A stretch of 64,000 bases of DNA, taken from an uncultured delta proteobacterium. Its GTDB lineage: Bacteria > Desulfobacterota > Desulfobacteria > Desulfobacterales > JAHEIW01. The DNA lies in contig CAVPNL010000001.1 of NCBI GenBank assembly GCA_963706575.1, forward strand, positions 160,001 through 224,000. The letters are read 5' to 3'. Below, one piece after another: positions 12,330 to 24,608 of this stretch. The first letter of the stretch is position 1. Each line of letters opens with the position of its first letter. Made by a program: the position numbers and the translations under genes. Under the pieces are notes generated by a model, which had not been told where the DNA came from, did no database searches, and saw only the letters and a list, made by a program, of their open reading frames with translations.

Positions 12330-12812
12330 AATCCCCTCCTTTACAAACTTTCAAGGTTTATTGTCGATCTTTCAAATGAAAATCAAATAAATAAAACATT
12401 ATTTTTAGATGAGGATTTTTAAATGCGCCAGGATGGAATCATATAACGGCGACATGATTTGATTACAGGACATAGGTGGTGATAATCAAGATTTAAATTA
12501 ATTCGCTTAAGAATAAGCTATGGATACAAAATCTGGGGAAATTGTATCTTCAATTTTCACATTTAAAAAAAAATCAGCTCATCCAAGTTTTAGCTTAGAC
12601 ACGATGTCCAAAATAAACTAAGGCCTCAAAAAGTGTGTATTCGCCATGTCTAATCTGTAAAATCAAGAGTCGTGGTTGAGGCACTTTTCTTAAATCAAAA
12701 TTTTTGAACCTTTTATGCCCTATCATATTTAAAAATTCTTGCGATATAAATTTGAAACATGTAATTTCAAGTGGGTTCGGTCGTTCGGGTTCAAGTCAAA
12801 AGGAGATTTCAT

Positions 12813-13376
12813 ATGACATACGAGGAGATTATCCAGTTTCACGGACATGAATGCCCGGGGCTTGCCATAGGCTACAGAATGGCTACCGCAGCAATGGAAA
12901 ATCTTGAATCTTTTCCTGCTGAAGATGAAGAACTGGTTGCAATAGTGGAGAATGATGCTTGCGGGGTTGACGCCTTACAGTGTGTTACTGGCTGCACCTT
13001 CGGTAAGGGAAATTTGCAGTTCCGTGATTACGGGAAGCACGTTTATACCATATATTCCCGATCGTCACGATCAGGTGTTCGTGTGCATTTTCATGGGAAT
13101 GATATTCCAGAAAGCTTACGCGAAGATCGAAAAGCCCTTAGCGATTGGATCCTATCTGCATCCAACGACAGTATCCTTTCTGTGACCCAAACTTCCATTC
13201 CCGAACCTGAATCTGCAAAAATCCGCGAGTCAATACCATGTGCGTTTTGCGGTGAGAACGTCATGGAATCCCGCATTCAGCAATTGCGTAAAAAGCCAGC
13301 TTGCATTCCATGTTACGAGAAGCTACGGAAGTTCAACCAAAACGATGAGGCAGGGATCGACAATTCGCGCCTTTGA
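12813..13376 (+). CDS. FmdE family protein with C-terminal zinc finger
   Basis: FHGHECPG, ENDACGVDA, CAFC..CIPC. Confidence 0.9.
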   Translation: MTYEEIIQFHGHECPGLAIGYRMATAAMENLESFPAEDEELVAIVENDACGVDALQCVTGCTFGKGNLQFRDYGKHVYTIYSRSSRSGVRVHFHGNDIPESLREDRKALSDWILSASNDSILSVTQTSIPEPESAKIRESIPCAFCGENVMESRIQQLRKKPACIPCYEKLRKFNQNDEAGIDNSRL

Positions 13377-13530
13377 TATCTGGGTTTTAATGCACAATCA
13401 TGATATCTGCAATATTGATAAACCTGTAATACTCTCAATATATCAAAAATTGAACTGTTTTGGAATTTCTGACAGTATGATTAAATTTATCAAACTCGAA
13501 TGAAAGTTCATCAATAAATGGAGGAAATAC

Positions 13531-13956
13531 ATGAAAAAATTATTTCGGTACAGAAAATCTGTTGGCTTAATCATGTTAATTTCAACATTTATGCTATACT
13601 TCTCGCCATCCCCTGCGCGGGCCGTTATGATAAATACTCGGTACGTAATTCATCAGGATTCTGAACAGCTTTATGCCAGGGCGAAAGTAAAAGCCTTTCT
13701 TTTAAGGGCGGATGTGATGGCACAAATGCAGACTTATGGAATTAATCCCACGGAAGCGCTATCCCGAGTTGATAGCCTGACAGATTGCGAAATTGCATCA
13801 ATAGCAGGCAAGATGGATCAGATACCAGCAGGAGCTGGAGACAATTATACAATGGATGGTCGCTTGTTAATGTTTATTGGCATGGCCATTTATGCAATCA
13901 TAGCTGCGATCGTAATATATTTTTCGTCTAACTCCGACAAGGAAGAGAAACCATAA
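13531..13956 (+). CDS. PA2779-like exported/membrane protein
   Basis: Signal peptide, RVDSLTD.EI..IAGKMDQIPAG, C-terminal TM helix. Confidence 0.7.
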   Translation: MKKLFRYRKSVGLIMLISTFMLYFSPSPARAVMINTRYVIHQDSEQLYARAKVKAFLLRADVMAQMQTYGINPTEALSRVDSLTDCEIASIAGKMDQIPAGAGDNYTMDGRLLMFIGMAIYAIIAAIVIYFSSNSDKEEKP

Positions 13957-14240
13957 TCAAGGCTTTTGGATGCCGATAACGTCGTCATAATTGTTGGAAG
14001 TAAAGAATGATACTTTCCTGAGAAAAAATGAATGGGTGCATTTATTTAATTTCTAAGCCCGGAATTTTATATCATCAAATGCGGATATGATATCACAAGT
14101 TGCCCGATTTAGTGATATTCTCAATGTATCACCATGTGATTGTAGCGAGCTCGCCAGTGATTAAATAATTTGATACAAGCATAAATGTCGTATCACCATC
14201 ATTATTGGGTGGTATAACACCTGAAAAAAGGAGGTGTAAC

Positions 14241-14405
14241 ATGCCCACATATGAGTTTTACTGTGAAAAATGTAAAAAATCCTTTAGCATAGTCCTTTCT
14301 ATTTCCGAATATGAAAAGAAAAAATACAGTTGCCCAAAGTGTAAAGCCAAAAAATTGAAGCAACAAATTTCATCCTTTCAGACGGTAACTTCAAAAAAAA
14401 GTTAA
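14241..14405 (+). CDS. FmdB family zinc-ribbon protein, copy 1
   Basis: MPTYEFYCEKC...CPKC; SD aggagg. Confidence 0.88.
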   Translation: MPTYEFYCEKCKKSFSIVLSISEYEKKKYSCPKCKAKKLKQQISSFQTVTSKKS

Positions 14406-14539
14406 CTATTATTGAGATACTGTTCTCAGAAAATGGGGATAATATCACAAGTTCCTTGTTTTGGTGATACTCTCAATATATCTCTAATTTGCGATATTGG
14501 GAATTTTAGATTTCACCCTATGCATTTCAGTCGAATAAA

Positions 14540-14983
14540 ATGATGGTAAAAAAAACACTATATAGAATACTTATATTCGATGATTCAGAAGAAATTCGAT
14601 CTTTATTATATGATTTTTTCAATAAAAGAGGATATGAGGTTTTTTCTTTCCCTAATCCCGCCGTTTGCCCAATATCTCACGAAAAAATATGTCCCTGTCC
14701 AACTGGAGTAGCTTGTTCTGATTTTATTTTATCGGACTTAAACATGCCAGTTCAACAAGGTATAGATTTCTTAGAAGGGCAAATACGTAAAGGTTGTCAG
14801 TGTAAAAATATGATTTTGATGTCTGGAGATTTTACTGAAAACGATATTGTACGAGCAAGATCTATTGGATTGATGCTTTTAAGAAAGCCTTTTGGTATTA
14901 CAGAAATTTTAGAATGGATAGAAAGCATAGAAAAAACTATTGACCCTGATAGAAAATTATCAGATTGGTTTCTTAAAAAATGA
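14540..14983 (+). CDS. Stand-alone response regulator with Cys-rich insert
   Basis: ILIFDD, SDLNMP, KPF receiver motifs. Confidence 0.82.
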   Translation: MMVKKTLYRILIFDDSEEIRSLLYDFFNKRGYEVFSFPNPAVCPISHEKICPCPTGVACSDFILSDLNMPVQQGIDFLEGQIRKGCQCKNMILMSGDFTENDIVRARSIGLMLLRKPFGITEILEWIESIEKTIDPDRKLSDWFLKK

Positions 14984-15232
14984 GTATGATATCCCAAGCT
15001 ACGATGTTTCTTTGATCAATGTATCACCAGTTTCGAGAATGCCTAATTTTGATTAAATAAGCCCATCCATTTGGGTATAAATGCGTATAAAATATTCCTG
15101 TTTTTTTAACCTAACGAACTGCTTCTTACATGGAATCAAATGCTCCTTCTTTTCTGATTCTTACGTTTTATCAATAAAATTTTATCCTGAGTTCAAAAGC
15201 ATGAAACCTTTTGAAATGAGGAGGGCTAAAAA

Positions 15233-16003
15233 ATGGTAAAGTGGAAATATTTTAAACCAATCCTTTTTTTATTATTTTGTTTTGCTTTTTCATTCGCTCT
15301 ATTTGTTGTTGAGGGAGTAGCCGAAGAAACTGTTAATATAACGACTGATGATGGTCAAAAGCTCAAGAGCACATACTTTGCACCATCGACTCCAAATGCA
15401 CCGGGTGTCATTTTATTACCTGACACAAGATGTGATAGAATGAATTTCGGCTCAATCCCAAGAAAACTTAATGAAGCTGGTTTTGCTGTTTTGGCATTGG
15501 ATCTCAGGTACAAAGATATTATCGCTAAGGCAGGAAGTCGAAAGAAACAAATTAGCACAATCCAGAAGCAGGATTTAATGGCTCTTGTAAAATACGATAC
15601 AAAAAGCGCTATTAATCTCTTAACCGGCAAAAAGCAAGTAGATCCAGAACGTATTGCTCTAATCGGTACAAGTCTTGGGTCGAGAGTGGCTATAATAGCC
15701 GGAGTTGAATACGACTTAAAAGCATTGGTATTAATTTCACTTTCTGGAGAAGTTGCATTTCCGGATTATAAGCCTATCAAAGAGCTTTTGTCAGATTATG
15801 GAGAGAAACCAATTCTTTTCATGACAGCAGAAAAAGATTGGGGTGGAAACGGAAAAGCTGCTGAACACAATAAGCTATATTACGAATGGAAAAATGGAAA
15901 AAAAGAATTAAAGATTTGGTCAGGATCTGGACATGGAGTTGAAATTCTTAAAAAAAATGAATCTATTAACTTCGTAATTTCATGGCTAAAAAATAATCTC
16001 TAA
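15233..16003 (+). CDS. Exported alpha/beta hydrolase
   Basis: Signal peptide, GTSLG nucleophile elbow, D...GHG. Confidence 0.82.
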   Translation: MVKWKYFKPILFLLFCFAFSFALFVVEGVAEETVNITTDDGQKLKSTYFAPSTPNAPGVILLPDTRCDRMNFGSIPRKLNEAGFAVLALDLRYKDIIAKAGSRKKQISTIQKQDLMALVKYDTKSAINLLTGKKQVDPERIALIGTSLGSRVAIIAGVEYDLKALVLISLSGEVAFPDYKPIKELLSDYGEKPILFMTAEKDWGGNGKAAEHNKLYYEWKNGKKELKIWSGSGHGVEILKKNESINFVISWLKNNL

Positions 16004-16111
16004 AAATTGACTCAAATAAATGCCGGTAAAAAAACGTATCAGAAGTTTCTTTGCGTTTTTAAAATCTGCGATATCTCCGACAAAGTACAAATATCAGGTT
16101 GCTAAATTTTT

Positions 16112-16420
16112 TGTGATATTCGATTTTAATCACAACTCAGAAGGGTGAATCTGGGCCGATAGATTTGCCCTTTTTATTGCCTCAAAGCCGCATTTTTCGG
16201 GCCTATGATTTGACAGTAGATTTTAAAATGCGATACGGTGCAGATATCCATATCGTACCTGAAAAATTGCGATATTTGGGTTTCTCTCAATATACATGTA
16301 GTTTTGACGAAGCTGTATTTTGGCAAAATAATTTGAGTTTTTAGAGAATTTAAATTTTTGTGATTACATCTACATATCCTTAGTTTGGGGATATTTGTGA
16401 TATTTTAGGATATCAAAAGT
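16112..16420 (+). repeat. ~310-bp non-coding module, copy 1 (copy 2 at 22603-22910)
   Basis: Highly similar collinear sequence, begins tgtgata.tcgattttaatcacaactcagaagggtg and ends gatatca.a.gt. Confidence 0.92.
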
Positions 16421-16532
16421 TTTTGGGAAATTAGAAGTTCACAAATATTGTGTTATATAGAATCTACGATATTGAATATCATAGATTATACCTAATACAT
16501 GTTCGACAAACAAAAATAATTGGAGAGTAACA

Positions 16533-17021
16533 ATGGCAAAAAATATTTCTTTTGGACATTTACTTATTTTATTATGCATTTTTTTTGTTTCGCCCCTTTC
16601 ATTATATGCTGCTGAGAAAAATATTGAATTATCGAAAGGCCAGAGTATTTATGTACCTGCCTATTCACATATATACAGCGGTAATCGGGAAAGTCCCTTC
16701 TTATTGACGGTGACATTGAGCATCAGAAACATTGATCCGAAGCATCAAATCAAAATCACCTTGGTCGATTATTACGAAACACAAGGTAAACTATTAAAAA
16801 AACATATAGATAAGCCAGTAACATTAAACCCATTAGAATCTTTACGCTATGTGATACCAGAAAGAGACAAAAGTGGGGGATCAGGCGCCAATTTTATCGT
16901 TGAATGGCAATCCGATAAATTTGTTAATCCACCCATTGTTGAATCAATAATGATTGGTACGCAAGCGCAACAAGGGATTTCTTTTACCTCTCGTGGTAAA
17001 GAAATTTATACCACTGAATAA
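16533..17021 (+). CDS. DUF3124 family exported protein
   Basis: GQSIYVPAYSHIY, GGSGANFIVEW, GISFTSRG. Confidence 0.88.
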   Translation: MAKNISFGHLLILLCIFFVSPLSLYAAEKNIELSKGQSIYVPAYSHIYSGNRESPFLLTVTLSIRNIDPKHQIKITLVDYYETQGKLLKKHIDKPVTLNPLESLRYVIPERDKSGGSGANFIVEWQSDKFVNPPIVESIMIGTQAQQGISFTSRGKEIYTTE

Positions 17022-17029
17022 TGATGGGT

Positions 17030-17091
17030 GTCGAACAAGGCTTTTGCAGCGGAGCGCCAAAAGCCGCGCCCGCTGAAAAGCAACGTTAATC
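17030..17091 (+). mobile_element. Integron attC site
   Basis: R'' GTCGAAC; ctttt(g)cagcgg pairs with ccgctgaaaag leaving an extrahelical G; R' GTT at 17085; complementary GTTCGAC at 16501 upstream of the gene. Confidence 0.82.
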
Positions 17092-17571
17092 AAGATACCT
17101 TCAACATACGCAAGCTGTGGGTGAACCTTTGATATCTCTTATAGTATCTGTAAAAAAATTGTCACCGTAATAGGACAGATACTGTAAACGTATCAAAGGG
17201 CAAACTCCTTTTGAACTATCTGCAAAAATCATATGAATAAACGCTTTACAAAACCGTTGATATCTCCAACTAATCGGCAAAATTGATGGCTTTAAAAAAA
17301 CTGTGATATCATATGAGGATATCTGTAATTTCGGTGAAATTCAGATTATTTCAATGTATCAGTACTTTCAAGAACTCCCAATAATGGTTGACCAAATCCC
17401 ATTGATTTGGGTATAAACACATCTAATGAATCTCTGATTTTCCTATTCCAACTGACCTGTAGCGGTTCTCTATTTTCAGAATCGAATCCTCTTCCTGAAC
17501 TGGCTTTTACACTCCTCCTAAAGTCCACATAATGAGTTTATCTGTTTGAACCCGATAAAAGGAGGTGTAAC

Positions 17572-17736
17572 ATGCCCACATATGAATTTTACTGTGAAAA
17601 ATGCAAAAATTCTTTTAGTATTGTCCTTTCTTTTTCAGAATATGAAAAGAAAAAATACAGATGCCCAAAGTGTAAAGCCAAAAAATTGAAACAACAAATT
17701 TCATCCTTTCAGACGGTAACTTCAAAAAAAAGTTAA
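17572..17736 (+). CDS. FmdB family zinc-ribbon protein, copy 2 (below ORF-track cutoff)
   Basis: Near-identical to 14241-14405, same SD. Confidence 0.88.
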   Translation: MPTYEFYCEKCKNSFSIVLSFSEYEKKKYRCPKCKAKKLKQQISSFQTVTSKKS

Positions 17737-17912
17737 CAGTAATTGAGATACTGTTCACGGAAACTGGTATTAATATCACAAGTTTCCAGTTTTGGTGATA
17801 TTCTCAATCGTTAACTGGCTGATATTTGGTTTTCTTTTAGACTATCACCACCAGCCGGAACCTTAAATTAGAAATATCTTGTACATCATTAAATATGAAA
17901 GGAGTAAAAACG

Positions 17913-18620
17913 ATGAGTGAAGTCACGCAACTGGATAAAACTTTCCACATCATCATGAAGCGTATGGTGGAGACGGGGCAGGCACCGTACTATACGGAAA
18001 TAGCAAAAGAACTCGGTGTGTCAATGGAGGAGGGGAGAAAGGCGTTGCATGATCTTTTCTCTGCCAGAATTTACGGATGGCTGTATCCCAATACGGATTT
18101 CATTACATCTTTCGCACCGTTCAACAATTTGCCTACTCAATTTCGGATTACCATCGATGGTGAGCAAAAGTGGTTTGGCCAGTGAGCGTTTGAGTCGCTG
18201 GCAGTCTGCTGGCTTTTTCCGGGAAAAGTGGTTCAAATCGACACACCGTGTCTGGACTGCGGTGAACCCATGCAGATTCAAATCAAAGACGGCGAGCTGC
18301 TCAAGGTTGATCCGCAAGGCCTGATCTCATACGTTGCCGTTCCACTGAAGGAGTGGTTCCGCGATGAGGCCTATTCCTGAGCGACCATGACATTCTTCCG
18401 GTCGGAAGAGCATCTGCACAACTGGGCCCAATTTGATCCTGCAACAGAGGAAGGAATCATCCCGCTAAATGATCTGATCAAACTCTTTTCGGGCAGAATA
18501 ACCCGTCGGCGCTTGGATCCTGACTATTTTTCACACATGCGCGAATATGTCGCTGATTTTATGGTAACTCTTCAGGAAATTGGTAAGACAGGACCGTTCT
18601 GGTCGATAGAGCGCTCCTAA
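17913..18620 (+). CDS. MerB-like organometallic lyase, probable selenoprotein with two UGA-Sec (U91, U156), 235 aa
   Basis: One frame through TGA 18183 and TGA 18378 gives WFGQUAFESLAV...TPCLDCGEP...AYSUATMTFFRS; hairpins 11-12 nt after each TGA. Confidence 0.82.
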
Positions 18621-18906
18621 TTAGCACCCAATTTAGGTCGACTGAATCCGGTTAGGATATTAGATGCGGGGTCAGTCTGAAAAACTGTGATACAGCTTCA
18701 ACTAATCAAAGATTTTTGAGGCCATTAAAATGTTGTGATATTTTGGTATATCACAAGTTTCCTGGTTTGGTGATACTCTCAATAAATCACAGGTCGATGC
18801 CAACGTTGGATACTGGCAAAAATAGTAGGTTTGAACTTGTGAAGCTCGGCCCAAAGGCAACAGTTTCTCTTTCGGTTGTGACAGGAAATAAAGGATAGAA
18901 GCAAAA

Positions 18907-20139
18907 ATGATCGGACAGACAACACGATGGCTCGGCTGCATATACCTGATGTTGTTCTGGATCGGAGCTTGTTCAACCCTGCACCCTGGCTTGGACGATC
19001 AAGGTCTGCCTCAAACCAAGTATATCTACAAGGTGCCCGTGGAAACAGATGACGGATGGGAGACCTCTTCTCTTAATGATGCAGGGATTGATCCGAGAAA
19101 AATCACTGAACTGATGCAGAATATCCTTACTCTGCGGTTTGCAAATGTCCACGGAGTATTGTTGGTTCGCAATGGAAAATTGGTTTTGGAGGAGTACTTT
19201 AACGGATACACATTCAACTTCTCAGGCCCAGGATTCAGGGGTGAACCTGTCGCCTATGGGCGGGACCAACTTCATGTTACGGCTTCAGTCACCAAAAGTG
19301 TCACTTCGGCCCTGTTGGGAATTGCCATCGACCAAGGTTTCATAAGTGATGTGGATGAGAGAATGGCTGCCTTCTTCCCACAATACTCAGATAGAATAGA
19401 TGAAAAAAAATCCAGAATTACCCTGGAGCACTTGCTTACCATGACCTCAGGTCTCGAATGGAACGAAATTGGGCGTTGGTTCAGAGATCCCGAGTTTGAT
19501 CTGGTCAGGCTGTTTGTTGAGCCGGATCCAATCGAATATGTCTTGTCGAAAGATGTTGTTCATGAACCGGGTACATACTGGTATTATAATGGTGGGGGCG
19601 TGAACCTGCTGGGTGAAGTTGTCCGGAAAGCATCAGGACTAAGGATCGACGCTTTTGCTGAGCACTATCTCATGGCGCCCCTTGGGATCAGAAAATATGA
19701 GTGGGACCACATCAATACTGAGATCATTCATGCCTCAGGAAACTTGAAACTCTGCCCAAGGGACATGGCGAAATTCGGGCAATTGTTTCTGAATGGGGGA
19801 ACATGGAAGAATCGCCGGATTATTTCCGAAGCCTGGGTAACCAAATCCACTAAACCGATTATCTCAATTCCTTTGAACTCCTTGAAAAAGGTCATTGCCA
19901 AGGAGTACCTGGCTTGGACGGAAACAATGGGAGATCGCTATGGATATCTGTGGTGGGTGAAGACCTTTTGCGCAGACTTCGGGTGTGCGGAATCCTACTT
20001 AGCTGACGGTTGGGGCGGACAGAAAATTGTCATATTTCCAAGTCTAAATCTCGTAGTCGTATTTACAGGCGGGAACTATGCCACAGCTGAACCGGTTCAT
20101 GAGATGATTTCCCAATATATCCTTCCTGCGGTTCAATAG
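18907..20139 (+). CDS. Serine hydrolase, beta-lactamase class C-like lipoprotein
   Basis: Lipobox IGAC, SVTK, LLTMTSG, YYN, YGYLWW. Confidence 0.9.
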   Translation: MIGQTTRWLGCIYLMLFWIGACSTLHPGLDDQGLPQTKYIYKVPVETDDGWETSSLNDAGIDPRKITELMQNILTLRFANVHGVLLVRNGKLVLEEYFNGYTFNFSGPGFRGEPVAYGRDQLHVTASVTKSVTSALLGIAIDQGFISDVDERMAAFFPQYSDRIDEKKSRITLEHLLTMTSGLEWNEIGRWFRDPEFDLVRLFVEPDPIEYVLSKDVVHEPGTYWYYNGGGVNLLGEVVRKASGLRIDAFAEHYLMAPLGIRKYEWDHINTEIIHASGNLKLCPRDMAKFGQLFLNGGTWKNRRIISEAWVTKSTKPIISIPLNSLKKVIAKEYLAWTETMGDRYGYLWWVKTFCADFGCAESYLADGWGGQKIVIFPSLNLVVVFTGGNYATAEPVHEMISQYILPAVQ

Positions 20140-20204
20140 TACCCAAAAAGCAATTTTGGGATTTCCCTTTATGCTCTTTAAAAAAAAATTAGGGAGAATA
20201 AGCT

Positions 20205-20567
20205 ATGGAGAAGCCCAGTTTGAGCATTCAAATCGCAGTTAGCTCGTTGGCGGGGCTGATTTTACTTAAAGCCGTATTGTTGGGTTCTCTTTGGGCCCAA
20301 GTCCAACCTCATCCCCCAGCAAGAGTGGGTCCCTTTATTGCAGCGAGCCTTAGCTTGACCGTTGTATCTATTCCACTCGTTTGGTGGCGCAATAAGATAG
20401 GATACACCACCTCGATAATAGTAGGATTACTTGGTCTAATATCATTTGGTCCTCATAAATTTTTTAGCGAATCAGCAGGCCAGATATTTCCAGCTATTAT
20501 AGTAGGCACAGTTCTTTCCGTAGTTTTGATAATCTCCTCTTTAGCGAGTTGGAGAACAAAGAAGTAA
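20205..20567 (+). CDS. Hypothetical 4-TM membrane protein (cassette gene)
   Basis: SD gggag, four hydrophobic segments, followed by attC. Confidence 0.7.
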   Translation: MEKPSLSIQIAVSSLAGLILLKAVLLGSLWAQVQPHPPARVGPFIAASLSLTVVSIPLVWWRNKIGYTTSIIVGLLGLISFGPHKFFSESAGQIFPAIIVGTVLSVVLIISSLASWRTKK

Positions 20568-20612
20568 AATAAAATTACCTTATTAATTTTCTCTAATAAT
20601 CTATATTTAAAA

Positions 20613-20717
20613 GCATAACAACCAGCTGAAGCTGACAGGAAATAACCTCGTTGTTTTCGTTAAAGGTCGTGCAAGCTTCACATGCACTGGGCATGCAGCT
20701 TAGCCGTGACGTTTCCA
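20613..20717 (+). mobile_element. Integron attC site
   Basis: R'' GCATAAC, 5 nt, gct(g)aagctg pairing with cagcttagc, 6 nt, GTT at 20711; complementary TTATGC at 20169 upstream of the gene. Confidence 0.78.
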
Positions 20718-20733
20718 ACCTGTGATACCTCCA

Positions 20734-22567
20734 GAGACTGTCGAAAAAGGTATCAATTGAAGGTGGTTTTTCTATAAGATCTATAATTTTTTATCCCACT
20801 CAAAGCTCCAAACAATATCCCGCAAATATCGGCTATCCTTGTATTTTTTCGTTTGACAATGTCTAGTCCTATTGCTAGGTATAGATTAGTTTCTGATACA
20901 ACAACCAGGCAAATATGGAGTGGACAAATTAATGGCCAAATTTAAGCGTTATGATTATTCCCAAAAGGTTTTAATCCCGGTTTCATTAGAGGAGCAACTG
21001 GTGCCCGGCAGTTTGGAGTTTGCCATCCATATGCTCATTGAGACGCGCATGGACATGTCGGTATTTGAGGGCAACTACAAAAATGACGAGACAGGCCGCA
21101 GTGCCTATGATCCTAAGATTTTGTTAAAAGTGGTATTGTTGGCTTACGCGCGGGGGCTGATATCCTCGCGGCAAATTGAAAGGGCCTGCTGTGAGAACGT
21201 GACCTTTATGGCGCTGTCTGGCAACCAGCGGCCCGATCACAGTACCATTGCAACTTTTGTATCTTCGATGAAAGATCAGATATTGCCTTTGTTTTGCGAC
21301 ATTTTATTGGTCTGTGAGCAAGAAAACCTATTGGGCGGGACCTTTTTTGCCTTAGACGGGGTAAAGCTACCGGCTAACGCGTCCAAGGAGTGCAGCGGCA
21401 CGATAGCAGAACTAAAAAAGAAAAAGGACAAAATACAACAAAAAGTCAAGCGCCTATTAAAAGATCAGATTGATGCGGATAAAGATGACGATGATGATTT
21501 TCGCACTCCACCCAAAGTCGAGCAGCAAATTGAGAAGCTTAACAAGCAAGCCGATCGCATTGAAAAATGGCTCAAAAAAAATAATGCCAAGATCAGCTCA
21601 AATGGCAGAGAGCTCAAAAGCAATCTAACCGATAATGACTCGGCGTTAATGCTCACCTCCGGCGGCACCATCCAGGGCTACAATGGCCAGGCGCTGGTGG
21701 ATGACAAGCACCAGATTATCGTTCATGGACAAGCCTTTGGCAGCGGACAGGATGCCAAACATCTTGATCCCATGGTTGATGGGGCTAAAGCCAATCTGGA
21801 AAAAATCGGTCAGAGTGCAGATTATTTTAAAGGCAAGATTTTAACTGCTGATACCAATTACCATAATCAAAGCAATTTAAAAAAGTGCCACGATGAACAG
21901 CTTGATGCATATATACCGGATTTAAAATTTCGCAACCGCGATTCACGATTTGCTACCCGGCCAAGGAATAAACCCAAGAAGGGTAAAAAATTTGTATTAG
22001 AAGATTTTAAGCACAACAAAGCTGCCGATCACTATATTTGTCCCAATGGTAAGGTGCTCAAGCTAAACGTAAAGCGCCACACCACAGATCACAATATCTA
22101 CCGCCGCTATATGGCCGATGAAGCCGATTGCAGCCGCTGTTCATTAACGCATCGATGTTTTTATCGCAAAAATACAAAACGTCGTTCACTGGATGTTCCC
22201 ATCGGTGCAGCAAACACCAATTTTTCCAAAGCCATGCAGCACAAAGTTGATAGTGAGAAGGGACGCAAAATATATCCACAGCGCTTTGCCATTGTGGAGC
22301 CGGTTTTTGCCAATATTAAAACCCAAAAGCGCTTGAATCGATTTACGCTAAGAGGCAAGGTCAAAGCTAACATCCAATGGATGCTCTATTGCATGGTGCA
22401 TAATATCGAAAAGATCATGAACTTTGCCACGGCATAAGCGGGATTATCAGCTCCAGGGCATACAAGCGGCATAATAAAACTTACCAGCAGCCCAAAATAC
22501 GACTTTAGAAATGTTTGAAGTTTGGCGCAACAGATGGATGTTTAAAAACAACTTATTCAACAACTTC
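20734..22567 (+). mobile_element. IS1182-family insertion sequence
   Basis: Left IR gagactgtcgaaaaag; degenerate right IR cttattcaacaacttc (11/16 match); flanked by CCA on both sides. Confidence 0.75.
20920..22437 (+). CDS. IS1182-family DDE transposase
   Basis: GRSAYDP, SSRQIE, PDHSTI, DGVK, ADTNY, YICPNG, VEPVFANIK. Confidence 0.92.
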   Translation: MDKLMAKFKRYDYSQKVLIPVSLEEQLVPGSLEFAIHMLIETRMDMSVFEGNYKNDETGRSAYDPKILLKVVLLAYARGLISSRQIERACCENVTFMALSGNQRPDHSTIATFVSSMKDQILPLFCDILLVCEQENLLGGTFFALDGVKLPANASKECSGTIAELKKKKDKIQQKVKRLLKDQIDADKDDDDDFRTPPKVEQQIEKLNKQADRIEKWLKKNNAKISSNGRELKSNLTDNDSALMLTSGGTIQGYNGQALVDDKHQIIVHGQAFGSGQDAKHLDPMVDGAKANLEKIGQSADYFKGKILTADTNYHNQSNLKKCHDEQLDAYIPDLKFRNRDSRFATRPRNKPKKGKKFVLEDFKHNKAADHYICPNGKVLKLNVKRHTTDHNIYRRYMADEADCSRCSLTHRCFYRKNTKRRSLDVPIGAANTNFSKAMQHKVDSEKGRKIYPQRFAIVEPVFANIKTQKRLNRFTLRGKVKANIQWMLYCMVHNIEKIMNFATA

Positions 22568-22602
22568 CCAACATATCCACACTTTTGGTAGCCTGAAAAA
22601 CC

Positions 22603-22910
22603 TGTGATACTCGATTTTAATCACAACTCAGAAGGGTGAATCTGAACCTATAGATTTGCCCTTTTTATTGTCTCAAAGTCCCATTTTTCGGGCATGCAAT
22701 TTGACACCCGATTTAAAAATACGATACGGTGCAGATATCCATATCGTATCTGTAAAATTGCGATATTTGTGTTTCTCTCAATATACATGTAGTTTTGGCG
22801 AAGCCGTATTCTGACAAAATAATTTGAGTTTTCGAGAATTTAAATTTTTGTGATTACATCTACGTATCTGCAGTTTGAGGTAATTTGTGATATTTTTTGA
22901 TATCACAGGT
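22603..22910 (+). repeat. ~310-bp non-coding module, copy 2
   Basis: Direct repeat of 16112-16420. Confidence 0.92.
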
Positions 22911-23126
22911 CATGAAAAGCATAGTTTTCTGTCTATTATCTCAATAAAGACCAGTCCAGTGATATTTGGTTTTCTGGTATGGTATCCAAACCTGGATTAA
23001 CCTGTCTTGTTGGGTACAGGACTGCATATAATTTCTTTATCGATATCTATGTTATCAAACTATGGCATTGCACCTTTTCGGCTTTTAGCTGTTCAACACT
23101 TCATTCCAACCAAGATGTAGGGTGTT

Positions 23127-23714
23127 ATGAAAAAAAGCGTCGTATTATTAATCACCTTGTTGGTTTTAACGTTTGTGAGTTGTGCTTTGTCGAACAAATA
23201 TATGACCAAGGCAACGCCTCCAGAAGGCCCGACACCTGGTAAGGCATTGGTATTTTTCATGCAACCAAACTATCCCGGCTCTCTTTTCCTCCAATTTAAG
23301 ATTTGGGAAGAATATAAATTAATCGGAATTAGCCGGTTCAAAAGATACTTCTCCTTTGAGTGTGATCCGGGTAAACATTATTTCATATGCATTACACGAT
23401 ACCCACATACGGTGGTGGCTGATCTTGCGGCTAACAAAACGTACTTCATTTTAATTCAGTTAATGTTGGATCCCTGGCCCGGGCATCATAGCATGCAGTT
23501 TATCCCTGTGAAACGCGGGTCTGGATACTGGGATAAAGTTGATAGATACAAACAAAAACTCAAGTATGAAGTGTTTCAACAGGTCGCGGCAAACGAATTG
23601 GAAAGCGAAAGTCGAGAAGAAATAATAACAGAACTCCATGAATTTATCAGCTATGTCAAAACTCCTGAAGGTCAGAGCCGCCAAGAGAGGCTGGAAAAAG
23701 AAGATGGACGTTAG
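23127..23714 (+). CDS. Hypothetical lipoprotein
   Basis: MKK + hydrophobic stretch + FVSC lipobox; ECDPGKHYF. Confidence 0.75.
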   Translation: MKKSVVLLITLLVLTFVSCALSNKYMTKATPPEGPTPGKALVFFMQPNYPGSLFLQFKIWEEYKLIGISRFKRYFSFECDPGKHYFICITRYPHTVVADLAANKTYFILIQLMLDPWPGHHSMQFIPVKRGSGYWDKVDRYKQKLKYEVFQQVAANELESESREEIITELHEFISYVKTPEGQSRQERLEKEDGR

Positions 23715-23980
23715 GATTGATAATAAACGATCCTTCATGCTAGACGGCCAGCATCATTGTTACCGTACCTGTTTTAAGGTGAAACATCAAAATTGTTATT
23801 TAATTTTAAAAAGTGTTGATGTCTCGAACCGATTAAAAATTTGCTAACCACCGAGGTCTTGTATATTTCTGCAATAAACGGATGCTTTGAAAAGTGACGA
23901 TACTGCAGCTAATCGCAGATGAGCCGAAATCGCGATATCTATGATGATATCTGCAAAAAAATGTTCACTAAAAAAGCACT

Positions 23981-24243
23981 AATACTGTAAACTGATCACA
24001 TGAGAATCATCTTTTAGGTTTATGCCGTTTGGTGGTAAATAAAACTGCCTTTCAAAAGTTGTGTTCACTCCAACTAATCGCAACTGAGCCTAAATTGCAG
24101 ATATCAACTATAAAAACCAAGTATCTTGCATCCTCGTATTCTGAGATACTGTAAACTAATCACAAAAGAGCCATCTTTTAGACCCCTACGATTTATTGGT
24201 AATAAAATTAGCTTTCCAAAAGCTGCGATTACTCCAACATATC
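23981..24243 (+). repeat. Two copies of a ~99-bp site-bounded unit (23981-24079, 24145-24243); third diverged copy at 17178-17275
   Basis: Each begins (g/a)atactgtaaac..atca and ends ctccaac(ta/at)atc. Confidence 0.8.
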
Positions 24244-24608
24244 TAAGGTTTTGAATCATCAAAATTCTTGCGATATTCATTTTATATCACAGGTGCAATA
24301 ATCCGCTAATTCCGTTTCTTTTAAAGATTTCATATTATTGGATAGAATCCACACTTCGGCTGAAGTTTAGATGGCGACTATGAATTGAACATCGAAATAA
24401 TTTGTACCTTCCATCAACACACCTAATGAATTTTAACCCTTTCTATATCTTAAAATCGGAACGCATCCTACAACTAGATATCTTGCAAAATAGTGAAAAT
24501 TTGCTTACATTATAGAGTCGGACGTTTCGCGAACAATGGCAAGCGTGCAGCTATGAAGCAGCTTATGTATTGTATCCTAAACAGAATACTTTAGCGTAGG
24601 AGTTAATT

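Follow-up and report, generated by a model that had tools for sequence, protein, structure and literature searches.

We analyzed a 64-kb stretch of DNA (hereafter, the window), which corresponds to G000:C1:160001-224000, G000 being the genome of the window, a 25-contig Desulfobacterales assembly that is 91.8% complete (C1 and the like denote contigs). Between positions 12813 and 24290 the window holds small, mostly unrelated genes separated by clusters of short palindromic sites, which are pieces of longer, conserved junction modules. With somewhat better than even confidence, we read this tract from sequence comparisons as one of several cassette arrays of a non-integron kind, whose modules would be served in trans by a small tyrosine recombinase. 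This reading draws on the non-random clustering of the sites, on the sharp ends of the modules, on mosaic blocks of homology broken at the site cores, on cassettes that recur in different contexts, on a guest element with tyrosine recombinases whose insertion doubled the 7-nt core, and on a recombinase gene nested between the two end cores of a full-length module.

Palindromic sites cluster in an AT-rich, co-oriented gene tract

The sites consist of two arms, GTGATAY and RTATCAC, flanking a 7-nt core that reads TGTAAAC, CTCCAAC, or TCTCAAT, and palindromes with an 8-nt spacer (N8) occur in addition to them. Exact matches to GATA-N9-TATC numbered 8 in the window, 7 of those within 14114-24288, and none of 100 dinucleotide shuffles reached this number (mean 0.71, maximum 4). 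When the arms GTGATA/TATCAC were sought with a spacer of 8 or 9 and a minimum of 10 of the 12 arm letters, 12400-24400 held 11 sites and the remaining 52 kb held 1, against a mean of 1.15 and a maximum of 5 in 100 second-order Markov simulations of the island; a looser cut-off of at least 9 of 12 arm letters gave 23 sites (simulated mean 8.59, maximum 17). Since the site numbers exceed both the shuffles and the simulations, the clustering is real and AT content is not its cause. Across the genome, GTGATA-Nx-TATCAC occurred nine times with N9, six times with N8, and once with N7, there were no cases with N6, N10, or N11, and a reversed-arm control returned no matches in the whole genome. The GC content of the tract is 0.32-0.47 vs. 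~0.50 in the flanks, and the 12 open reading frames (ORFs) between 12.8 and 23.7 kb, the transposase included, all lie on the + strand.

Much of a first-pass annotation of this DNA held up against these results. The families named in its gene list were found with Pfam, the tract is as AT-rich as it had said, and its core classes (ctctcaat, ctccaac, and ctgtaaac) and their shared orientation were confirmed; the shuffles speak against the outcome that it had named as fatal to its case, a motif no more frequent than in shuffled sequence. Its figure of more than 25 GATA-N9-TATC sites was too generous: the sites are real and above chance, but a strict count gives about 11-23, and more than 25 is reached only with very degenerate copies. 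It had also noticed no such clusters elsewhere in the window, which is correct; in the rest of the genome we found at least four further islands.

The repeated unit is a composite junction module

Rather than standing alone as 17-mers, the sites form part of longer conserved modules. The commonest piece reads GATATCACAAGTTnCCnGTTTTRGTGATAYTCTCAAT. In 58 unique composites the left arm carries 1.77 bits per position and TCTCA 1.7-2.0, while the AT that follows TCTCA carries 0.8-1.0 bits per position, the right arm 0.40, and the DNA further right 0.14. At CTCCAAC sites it is the right flank that is the more conserved (0.55 vs. 0.18 bits per position in the left flank). Conservation thus starts at CTCCAAC and collapses after TCTCA, so the unit is not one 17-bp site per gene but a composite junction module, 85-330 nt long, running from CTCCAAC to ...GTGATAYTCTCA(AT). 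The interior of the module holds an N8 palindrome or a TCGATTT/CATTTTA site, to which the long versions add a terminator-like hairpin, and TGTAAAC sites precede the module. Half-site orientations alternate along it (GTGATAT, ATATCAC, GTGATAY, RTATCAC, GATAT). Within an island, sites and genes are always on one strand, as at C4:286-311 kb, where a single strand carries 13 of 13 sites and almost every gene.

Some modules are followed by a sigma-70-like promoter (TTGACY-N17-TATAAA); promoter-like matches were not enriched (33 vs. 36.2 expected), and neither were terminators in a corresponding scan. A co-oriented ORF of 77 amino acids or more begins no more than 313 nt downstream in 17 of 19 cases, at distances ranging from 24 to 313 nt. 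Folded as single strands, the N9 sites and whole composites did no better than shuffled sequences (z −0.38 to −0.75 in 6 of 10 folds), and N8 palindromes did (z −2.2 to −3.6). The arms conserve their sequence in the alignment, with no co-variation, and a search of Rfam gave two matches at E values up to 1, with 0.087 as the lowest, to eukaryotic families in both cases and far under their gathering scores.

The features of the tract, in window coordinates, are these:

12813..13376, +, cassette gene for an FmdE-domain protein with a C4 zinc finger (PF02663, E 1.1e-38)
13404..13446, +, junction module ending in a TCTCAAT-class site, core 13433-13439 (repeat family D4; weak nhmmer match; arms 10/12)
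13531..13956, +, cassette gene for a DUF6627 protein (PF20332)
14088..14132, +, composite junction element (ATATCAC, 15 nt, GTGATAT-TCTCAAT-GTATCAC), core 14119-14125, a perfect N9 palindrome (nhmmer E 1.9e-14); left border of the FmdB block that reappears at C1:4 kb
14241..14405, +, cassette gene for an FmdB-family zinc ribbon, copy 1 of 4 in the genome (TIGR02605)
14440..14484, +, composite junction element, core 14471-14477 (nhmmer E 1.2e-15); three identical genomic copies, which diverge directly past TCTCAAT
14540..14983, +, cassette gene for a stand-alone receiver domain (PF00072); copy 2, at C8:354.9 kb, is 89% identical over 606 nt and has a different gene in front
14986..15030, +, degenerate composite junction element (alignment A1) with a shared promoter-like module behind it (repeat families D15 and D20)
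15233..16003, +, cassette gene for a dienelactone-hydrolase-like protein (PF01738)
16075..16291, +, long recombinase-less junction module (repeat family D2), the right part of which aligns to the ends of recombinase-bearing modules; in order, a CTCCGAC start, a GTGATAT-TCGATTT-TAATCAC site, a terminator-like hairpin, a GATATCCATATCG motif, and a TCTCAAT end (16285-16291); further copies at C4, C8, C2, and C15 and in other genomes
16397..16416, +, N8 palindrome site, GTGATA-N8-TATCAA (arm scan; single-strand DNA hairpin z −2.19)
16533..17021, +, cassette gene for a DUF3124 protein (PF11322)
17176..17196, +, TGTAAAC-class site, core 17183-17189 (exact-site and perfect-arm scans)
17257..17277, +, CTCCAAC-class site, core 17264-17270 (repeat families, arm scan, block comparison)
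17320..17362, +, junction end with a TTTCAAT core (17349-17355), then a promoter-like module (repeat families D4, D15, and D20)
17572..17736, +, cassette gene for FmdB-family zinc ribbon copy 2 (Pfam), 90% identical to copy 1 as far as TCTCAAT (D1)
17773..17815, +, composite junction element, core 17802-17808 (nhmmer E 2.5e-13)
17895..18620, +, cassette gene for a MerB-like protein with two in-frame TGA codons, 18183-18185 and 18378-18380 (PF03243 with TGA read through)
18689..18790, +, complete short junction module with a CTTCAAC start (18696-18702), an N8 palindrome (18735-18754), and a TCTCAAT end (18777-18783)
18907..20139, +, cassette gene for a serine hydrolase with a beta-lactamase fold (PF00144)
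20205..20567, +, cassette gene for a small membrane protein (an ORF without a Pfam family)
20721..20733, +, CTCCAAC-class site interrupted by an insertion sequence (IS), left half (GTGATAC CTCCA)
20734..22567, +, guest IS of the IS1182 family at the center of that site, with a CCA duplication (NF033551, 302.6 bits vs. a cut-off of 270)
22568..22782, +, right half of the split site (CCAACATATCC), then a second long recombinase-less module with a TCTCAAT end at 22776-22782 (repeat family D2)
22887..22906, +, N8 palindrome site (hairpin z −3.60)
23127..23714, +, cassette gene for a DUF2846-like lipoprotein (weak PF11008 match); in another metagenome-assembled genome (MAG) a DUF2846 gene likewise adjoins a junction element
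23979..24290, +, tandem left-end module pieces (repeat families D5 and D6) that align to the left end of recombinase-bearing modules; in order, TGTAAAC 23986-23992, CTCCAAC 24068-24074, TGTAAAC 24150-24156, CTCCAAC 24232-24238, and GCGATAT-TCATTTT-ATATCAC 24270-24290

The hairpin of the two long modules (GGGTGAATCT...AGATTTGCCC and a T run) lies at 16130-16175 and 22620-22665.

Homology breaks at the cores

The clearest mosaic block carries the FmdB gene. Positions 14119-14490 match C1:4291-3920 with 98.7% identity, unrelated DNA lies on both sides, and on the left the two copies have only TCTCAAT in common. FmdB has four copies in the genome, with different neighbors at each. In the same way, 17175-17264 is 92% identical to C4:297575-297486, the match ends at the next CTCCAAC core, and what follows matches other loci. 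To put this in numbers, we took blocks at least 85% identical from the G000 islands and 39 loci of other genomes; 27 of 108 internal block ends fell at most 10 nt from a core, vs. 1.9% for random positions.

Comparable arrangements occur in other genomes. An O-methyltransferase cassette common to two MAGs (93.8% identity) has its border at TCTCAAT, a hydrolase retains its 3′ module in three genomes, and a SnoaL gene is found behind different genes. The neighbor genes of junctions in other genomes encode diverse small enzymes, according to a Pfam scan that covered 93 of 111 ORFs, the other 18 coming from seven loci with records labelled as other phyla. At the ThiD locus, a junction element lies downstream in 8 of 11 genomes of the genus and has diverged along with ThiD, while the DNA past the core differs in each. 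Upstream of a PrpD-like gene, G000 and G014 have a palindrome that is absent from the equally close G005 and G009. An IlvE-like accessory gene located behind a module reaches 96% identity in a pair of genomes with adenine deaminases that agree at only 67%. This aminotransferase gene (G000:C12:2521-3597, − strand; L117 6154-7388), which has 53% identity to the core copy at C9, is shared at 96% amino acid identity only with a distant member of the genus, G011, and this level of identity points to recent transfer.

Metagenome contigs from sediment and estuary, no run of which contains more than 0.43 of the sampled words, also change at these positions. Among the matches listed, at least 40 contigs begin to match at 24067-24069, where the first letter of CTCCAAC is 24068, with unlike DNA before it, and four diverge directly past TCTCAAT at 22782. 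One contig joins 17804 to the end of an IS or miniature inverted-repeat transposable element. In some of the metagenome joints, such as 15016 to 17815, the short sides measure 20-21 nt and may consist of nothing but the conserved motif.

The contigs of the closest relatives terminate at the island border. From window 1-30 kb, eight relatives share only the adenine deaminase gene and the neighboring receiver gene. In these eight, the receiver/adenine deaminase pair (window 24915) adjoins genes that in G000 lie at C1:125.7-135.5 kb, from which the pair is separated in G000 by ~49 kb that includes window 1-24.9 kb. An apparent anchor beside a methyltransferase gene proved to be one more repeated module, and we dropped that argument.

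A small tyrosine recombinase lies between the module ends

The candidate enzyme is a 228-residue tyrosine recombinase at G000:C18:107744-108427, whose sole recognized domain is the catalytic one and which is present in one copy in G000; 11 of 25 family genomes have homologs. We collected 80 metagenome loci with such homologs (285 kb), in which stringent core sites reach 10.2 per 100 kb vs. 0.69 in G000, a ~15-fold difference, and of these 29 sites 28 are antisense to the gene. TCTCAAT occurs 269-271 nt upstream of the matched recombinase start in five loci and is aligned in 8 of 8 rows of a subgroup, whose conservation stops just past it. On the other side, CTCCAAC occurs 184-186 nt past the recombinase stop in three loci, and the CCAAC core is aligned there in 6 of 7. 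The row G000_C18 was not used in these module-end alignments (A2 and A3). In array orientation, a full-length module of ~1.2 kb therefore reads CTCCAAC, TGTAAAC site, terminator, antisense recombinase, its promoter region, GATATCCATAT motif, and TCTCAAT. The modules at 16075-16291 and 22568-22782 and the pieces at 23979-24290 of the window align to both ends of this full-length form and carry no gene. The hairpin of the long modules has its homolog in the terminator that follows the recombinase gene of full-length modules.

In the G000 copy of the recombinase gene a GGAGG precedes the ATG, the ATG frame stops 16 nt past a run of nine A (A9), and the catalytic frame is the +1 frame, so the full-length protein would need a slip. 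The A9 run is near-invariant in the aligned metagenome loci. A requirement for slippage, predicted here from the reading frames, would be a form of control typical of mobile-element enzymes.

Guest mobile elements occupy the cores

Three guest mobile elements sit exactly in cores. Three full copies of the IS1182-family IS split CTCCAAC-class sites between GATAYCTCCA and ACATATC, with a CCA duplication, and five 108-nt miniature copies, with the same ends as the IS (GAGACTGTCG...), split TCTCAAT-class sites between GATAYTCTCA and ATRTATC, always at the exact dyad center and with a TCA duplication. The third is an element of 2.1 kb that encodes a pair of Xer-like recombinases (360 and 312 amino acids). 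The locations of the last two are:

C4:215094-215201, 292134-292241, 304760-304867, and 360469-360576; C12:204368-204475, miniature IS copies
G000:C1:17-2124, −, Xer-pair element
G000:C12:208281-210388, +, Xer-pair element (also in L061 and L064)

We had considered the IS and miniature insertions as evidence for recombination and then downgraded them. Members of the IS1182 family are described as targeting stem-loops, and IS1272, of the same family, as targeting inverted repeats whatever their sequence (PMC5678879). As such targeting is independent of sequence, the insertions show the palindromy of the sites rather than their function.

The Xer-pair element has a 14-nt terminal inverted repeat, CTGTACGACATAAA, and the 7-nt CTCCAAC core is directly duplicated around it, with the arms of the site outside: GTGATTT-CTCCAAC is joined to CTGTACGAC at one end, and GTCGTACAG is joined to CTCCAAC-ATATCGG at the other. 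The footprint is that of a conservative integration with a 7-nt overlap into the CTCCAAC class. G000 has two copies, and the identical left junction is found in two further genomes. We rejected this pair as the enzyme of the arrays and regard the element as a guest. Homologs with more than 45% identity occur in 5 of 25 family genomes and are unrelated to module numbers: G000 has 21 composites, the other four have 1-3, and G001, with 8 composites, has no homolog. Moreover, a relative in G010 (47% identity) uses an unrelated target, CATAGCC.

Group II intron reverse transcriptase genes also directly adjoin junction sites in two genomes (G000:C4:301306-302598, − strand, and L040 274-1596). At G000:C4:312050-315566, two near-identical Y1 (IS200-like/RAYT-like) transposases of 264-266 amino acids lie around a gene for a 438-residue protein with a signal peptide, with no junction sites beside them. 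The Y1 (RAYT) transposases were discarded as candidates for the enzyme: there were six PF01797 matches, none of them adjoining sites, and the pair at C4:312-315.6 kb is without junction modules.

Distribution in the genome, the family, and metagenomes

The scan of this genome and its relatives that the first-pass annotation had proposed revealed clusters in at least five AT-rich islands of G000, the others lying at C1:2-11 kb, C4:288-311 kb, C4:351-362 kb, and C8:354-360 kb. The composite element gave 19 matches in G000 with nhmmer and 21 with a covariance model. It is present in 18 of 25 family genomes, namely G000, 15 of 21 others of the genus, and 2 of 3 of the sister genus. Outside the family, a 14-mer was found in 2 of 36 sampled genomes of the order, and among public species genomes the pattern is almost confined to Desulfobacterales MAGs. 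Single copies of the module also occur between otherwise ordinary genes.

Comparison with known systems

The arrays resemble integrons, those without an integrase included, in several ways. Small accessory genes with no relation to one another share an orientation, and behind each comes a non-coding module whose conserved ends are sharp. Array content differs from one relative to the next, transcription of the tyrosine recombinase points away from the cassettes behind its promoter-side site, and guest insertion sequences and introns lie within sites. In contrast to integrons, the end cores are direct and of several classes, a junction module flanked by arrays on either side houses the recombinase, which is very small, and there are many dispersed arrays and single modules. 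No integron integrase was found in G000, where the best match to TIGR02249 scored 85.2 bits against a cut-off of 265 and all 15 matches were Xer-like or other recombinases. Nor did we find the inverted R′′ RYYYAAC/R′ GTTRRRY pair and single-strand fold of attC: the cores are direct, and the composites and N9 sites fold as poorly as noted above. A search for serine recombinases as candidates returned none.

The dif site of the order reads YGATAA-N6-TTATGTAAAC and was found as a single copy in 39 of 61 sampled genomes; the likely chromosomal dif of G000 is TGATAA GTTATA TTATGTAAAC, at C2:141710-141731. With the XerC arm of this chromosomal dif our sites share only TGATA, and no plasmid dif (pdif)-type sites were found. 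The statement in the first-pass annotation that the sites are neither attC nor dif/pdif is thus upheld. The pdif modules of Acinetobacter plasmids are likewise gene modules with short double-strand Xer-type sites, shuffled between replicons by an enzyme that is not adjacent (PMC6449649, PMC13141974). They differ in that the pdif site is a 28-bp sequence with a XerC arm, a 6-bp center, and a XerD arm, whereas the sites described here have 7-nt cores and two like arms with no XerD arm, are co-oriented rather than alternating (13 of 13 at C4:286-311 kb), and belong to composite modules of 85-330 nt.

Repeats of the REP/BIME, BOX, and Correia types are likewise modular palindromic intergenic mosaics that carry terminators or promoters and attract insertion sequences; the modules described here differ in that they bound exchangeable genes, keep one orientation, and derive from a recombinase-encoding element.

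A model for cassette exchange and its alternatives

According to the reading we favor, the full-length module at G000:C18:107744-108427 would supply the recombinase in trans, and the enzyme would bind the arms of the sub-sites. Strands would be exchanged within the 7-nt cores, and a core would recombine solely with others of its own class, so that a gene with its junction module could be excised as a circle and enter another core of that class, as an ORF with its attC does in an integron. The action of the recombinase on the sites, the conservative, single-class exchange, and the formation of circles are inferred. The first-pass annotation had proposed a gene-capture or shuffling array driven by a recombinase encoded outside the window. 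The breaks in homology at cores and the different neighbors of the same genes agree with the first part, but recombination was not seen directly and not all borders lie at sites. As for the second, a small recombinase does lie between CTCCAAC and TCTCAAT ends, and an Xer pair lies in CTCCAAC sites, but neither tracks the modules across the incomplete family genomes.

Several observations weigh against the cassette model. Among the family genomes, all incomplete MAGs, the small recombinase occurs in 9 of the 18 that have composites and in 2 of the 7 that lack them, and a strict composite model run on the 80 recombinase loci gave 16 weak matches (14-25 bits) in 10 of the 80. Only the first five letters of the core, TCTCA, are strongly conserved, and a simple cassette model gives no obvious role to the several core classes of each intergenic region. 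In the FmdB case two letters past the core differ between otherwise identical blocks, which is unexpected for exchange in a fully identical 7-nt overlap. Some block borders lie away from sites, for example the right end of the IlvE-like block, and insertions beside the receiver gene in relatives are not bounded by sites. We saw no recombination product, circle, or empty site between two cores. Finally, a module length of 85-330 nt suffices for homologous recombination, and part of the mosaic could have arisen in this way.

In the main competing explanation, which we consider unlikely but by no means negligible, the modules would be miniature, non-autonomous derivatives of a selfish, IS-like recombinase element that colonized the intergenic DNA of AT-rich accessory regions, the genes would not have been captured, and the mosaic would come from homologous recombination of dispersed copies together with repeated insertion beside palindromes. 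The many copies with sharp conserved ends, the gene-less forms that align to both full-length ends, the single copies between ordinary genes, the block borders off sites, and a module length that suffices for RecA-dependent exchange are all in line with it. It accounts less well for the ThiD locus, where the module stays with the upstream gene and everything past the core changes, unlike an insertion into a conserved interval, or for the FmdB block, whose 7 nt in common on the left are too little for homologous exchange; arrays strictly co-oriented with their genes also argue against it, and we came upon no empty site in which the two old flanks are joined.

Regulation offers another explanation, in which the sites would be operators of one dimeric transcription factor, for instance with a LysR-type T-N11-A box, and the modules would be the shared promoter regions of an accessory regulon. 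We regard this as improbable, even if the dyad symmetry with spacers of 8 or 9, the co-oriented ORF within 313 nt downstream in 17 of 19 cases, and the sigma-70-like sequence after some modules would fit it. The core is asymmetric and, with the left arm, carries 1.6-1.8 bits per position against 0.40 in the right arm, where an operator regulon calls for conservation of both half-sites, and promoter-like matches are no more frequent than expected. The distance from site to gene varies from 24 to 313 nt, which, with the poor right arm, weakens the possibility raised in the first-pass annotation that these are simply operators at fixed promoter positions. Close relatives, in addition, differ in the presence of sites at orthologous loci, the DNA past the core changes, and a recombinase gene is nested between the end cores. 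Least probable of all, in our view, is that the sites act as folded single-strand DNA, like attC, or as RNA with alternative hairpins of the attenuator type. The alternating half-sites, whose adjacent arms could pair, the stable N8 palindromes (z −2.2 to −3.6), and the stem-loop targeting described for IS1182-family members (PMC5678879) point in that direction. As single strands, however, the N9 sites and composites are no more stable than shuffles, the arms show conserved sequence in place of co-variation, Rfam gave nothing at E below 0.087, and no integron integrase was found.

Returning to the cassette model, a more far-reaching version of it is conceivable, which we put forward as tentative and on the whole doubtful. 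Marine-sediment sulfate reducers would possess an integron-independent means of gene capture in which a minimal, nested recombinase under slippage control serves dozens of gene-less modules. The four core classes, which would not cross-react, would form an address code that keeps exchanges in register while genes and regulatory pieces are reshuffled, and the IS1182-family IS, its miniatures, and the Xer pair would have evolved homing to the cores.

Significance

Integrons are, to our knowledge, the sole well-understood general gene-cassette platform of bacteria, and the tools that detect them search for IntI and attC. The sites described here differ from those of integrons, the associated recombinase is much smaller, and the modules are spread over many chromosomal loci in abundant sediment sulfate reducers. 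If the cassette model is correct, cassette-based gene flow would be broader than integron surveys indicate, and short double-strand sites with several core classes would be candidates for orthogonal recombination tools. A search of the literature at the level of titles and abstracts found no description of such a junction system.

A putative selenoprotein among the cassette genes

The two in-frame TGA codons of the MerB-like gene fall where the read-through protein matches the MerB family, and a hairpin follows each (GCTGGCAGTCTGCTGGC; CTTCCGGTCGGAAG). The gene probably encodes a selenoprotein with two selenocysteine residues, and a MerB-like family is included in a published table of prokaryotic selenoproteins (PMC9312934). 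Downstream of ThiD in another genome (L124, G007:C40:72730-74150), we noticed an ORF with an in-frame TGA that is MerB-like by eye, without a family search, and that may be another copy of this MerB-like selenoprotein.

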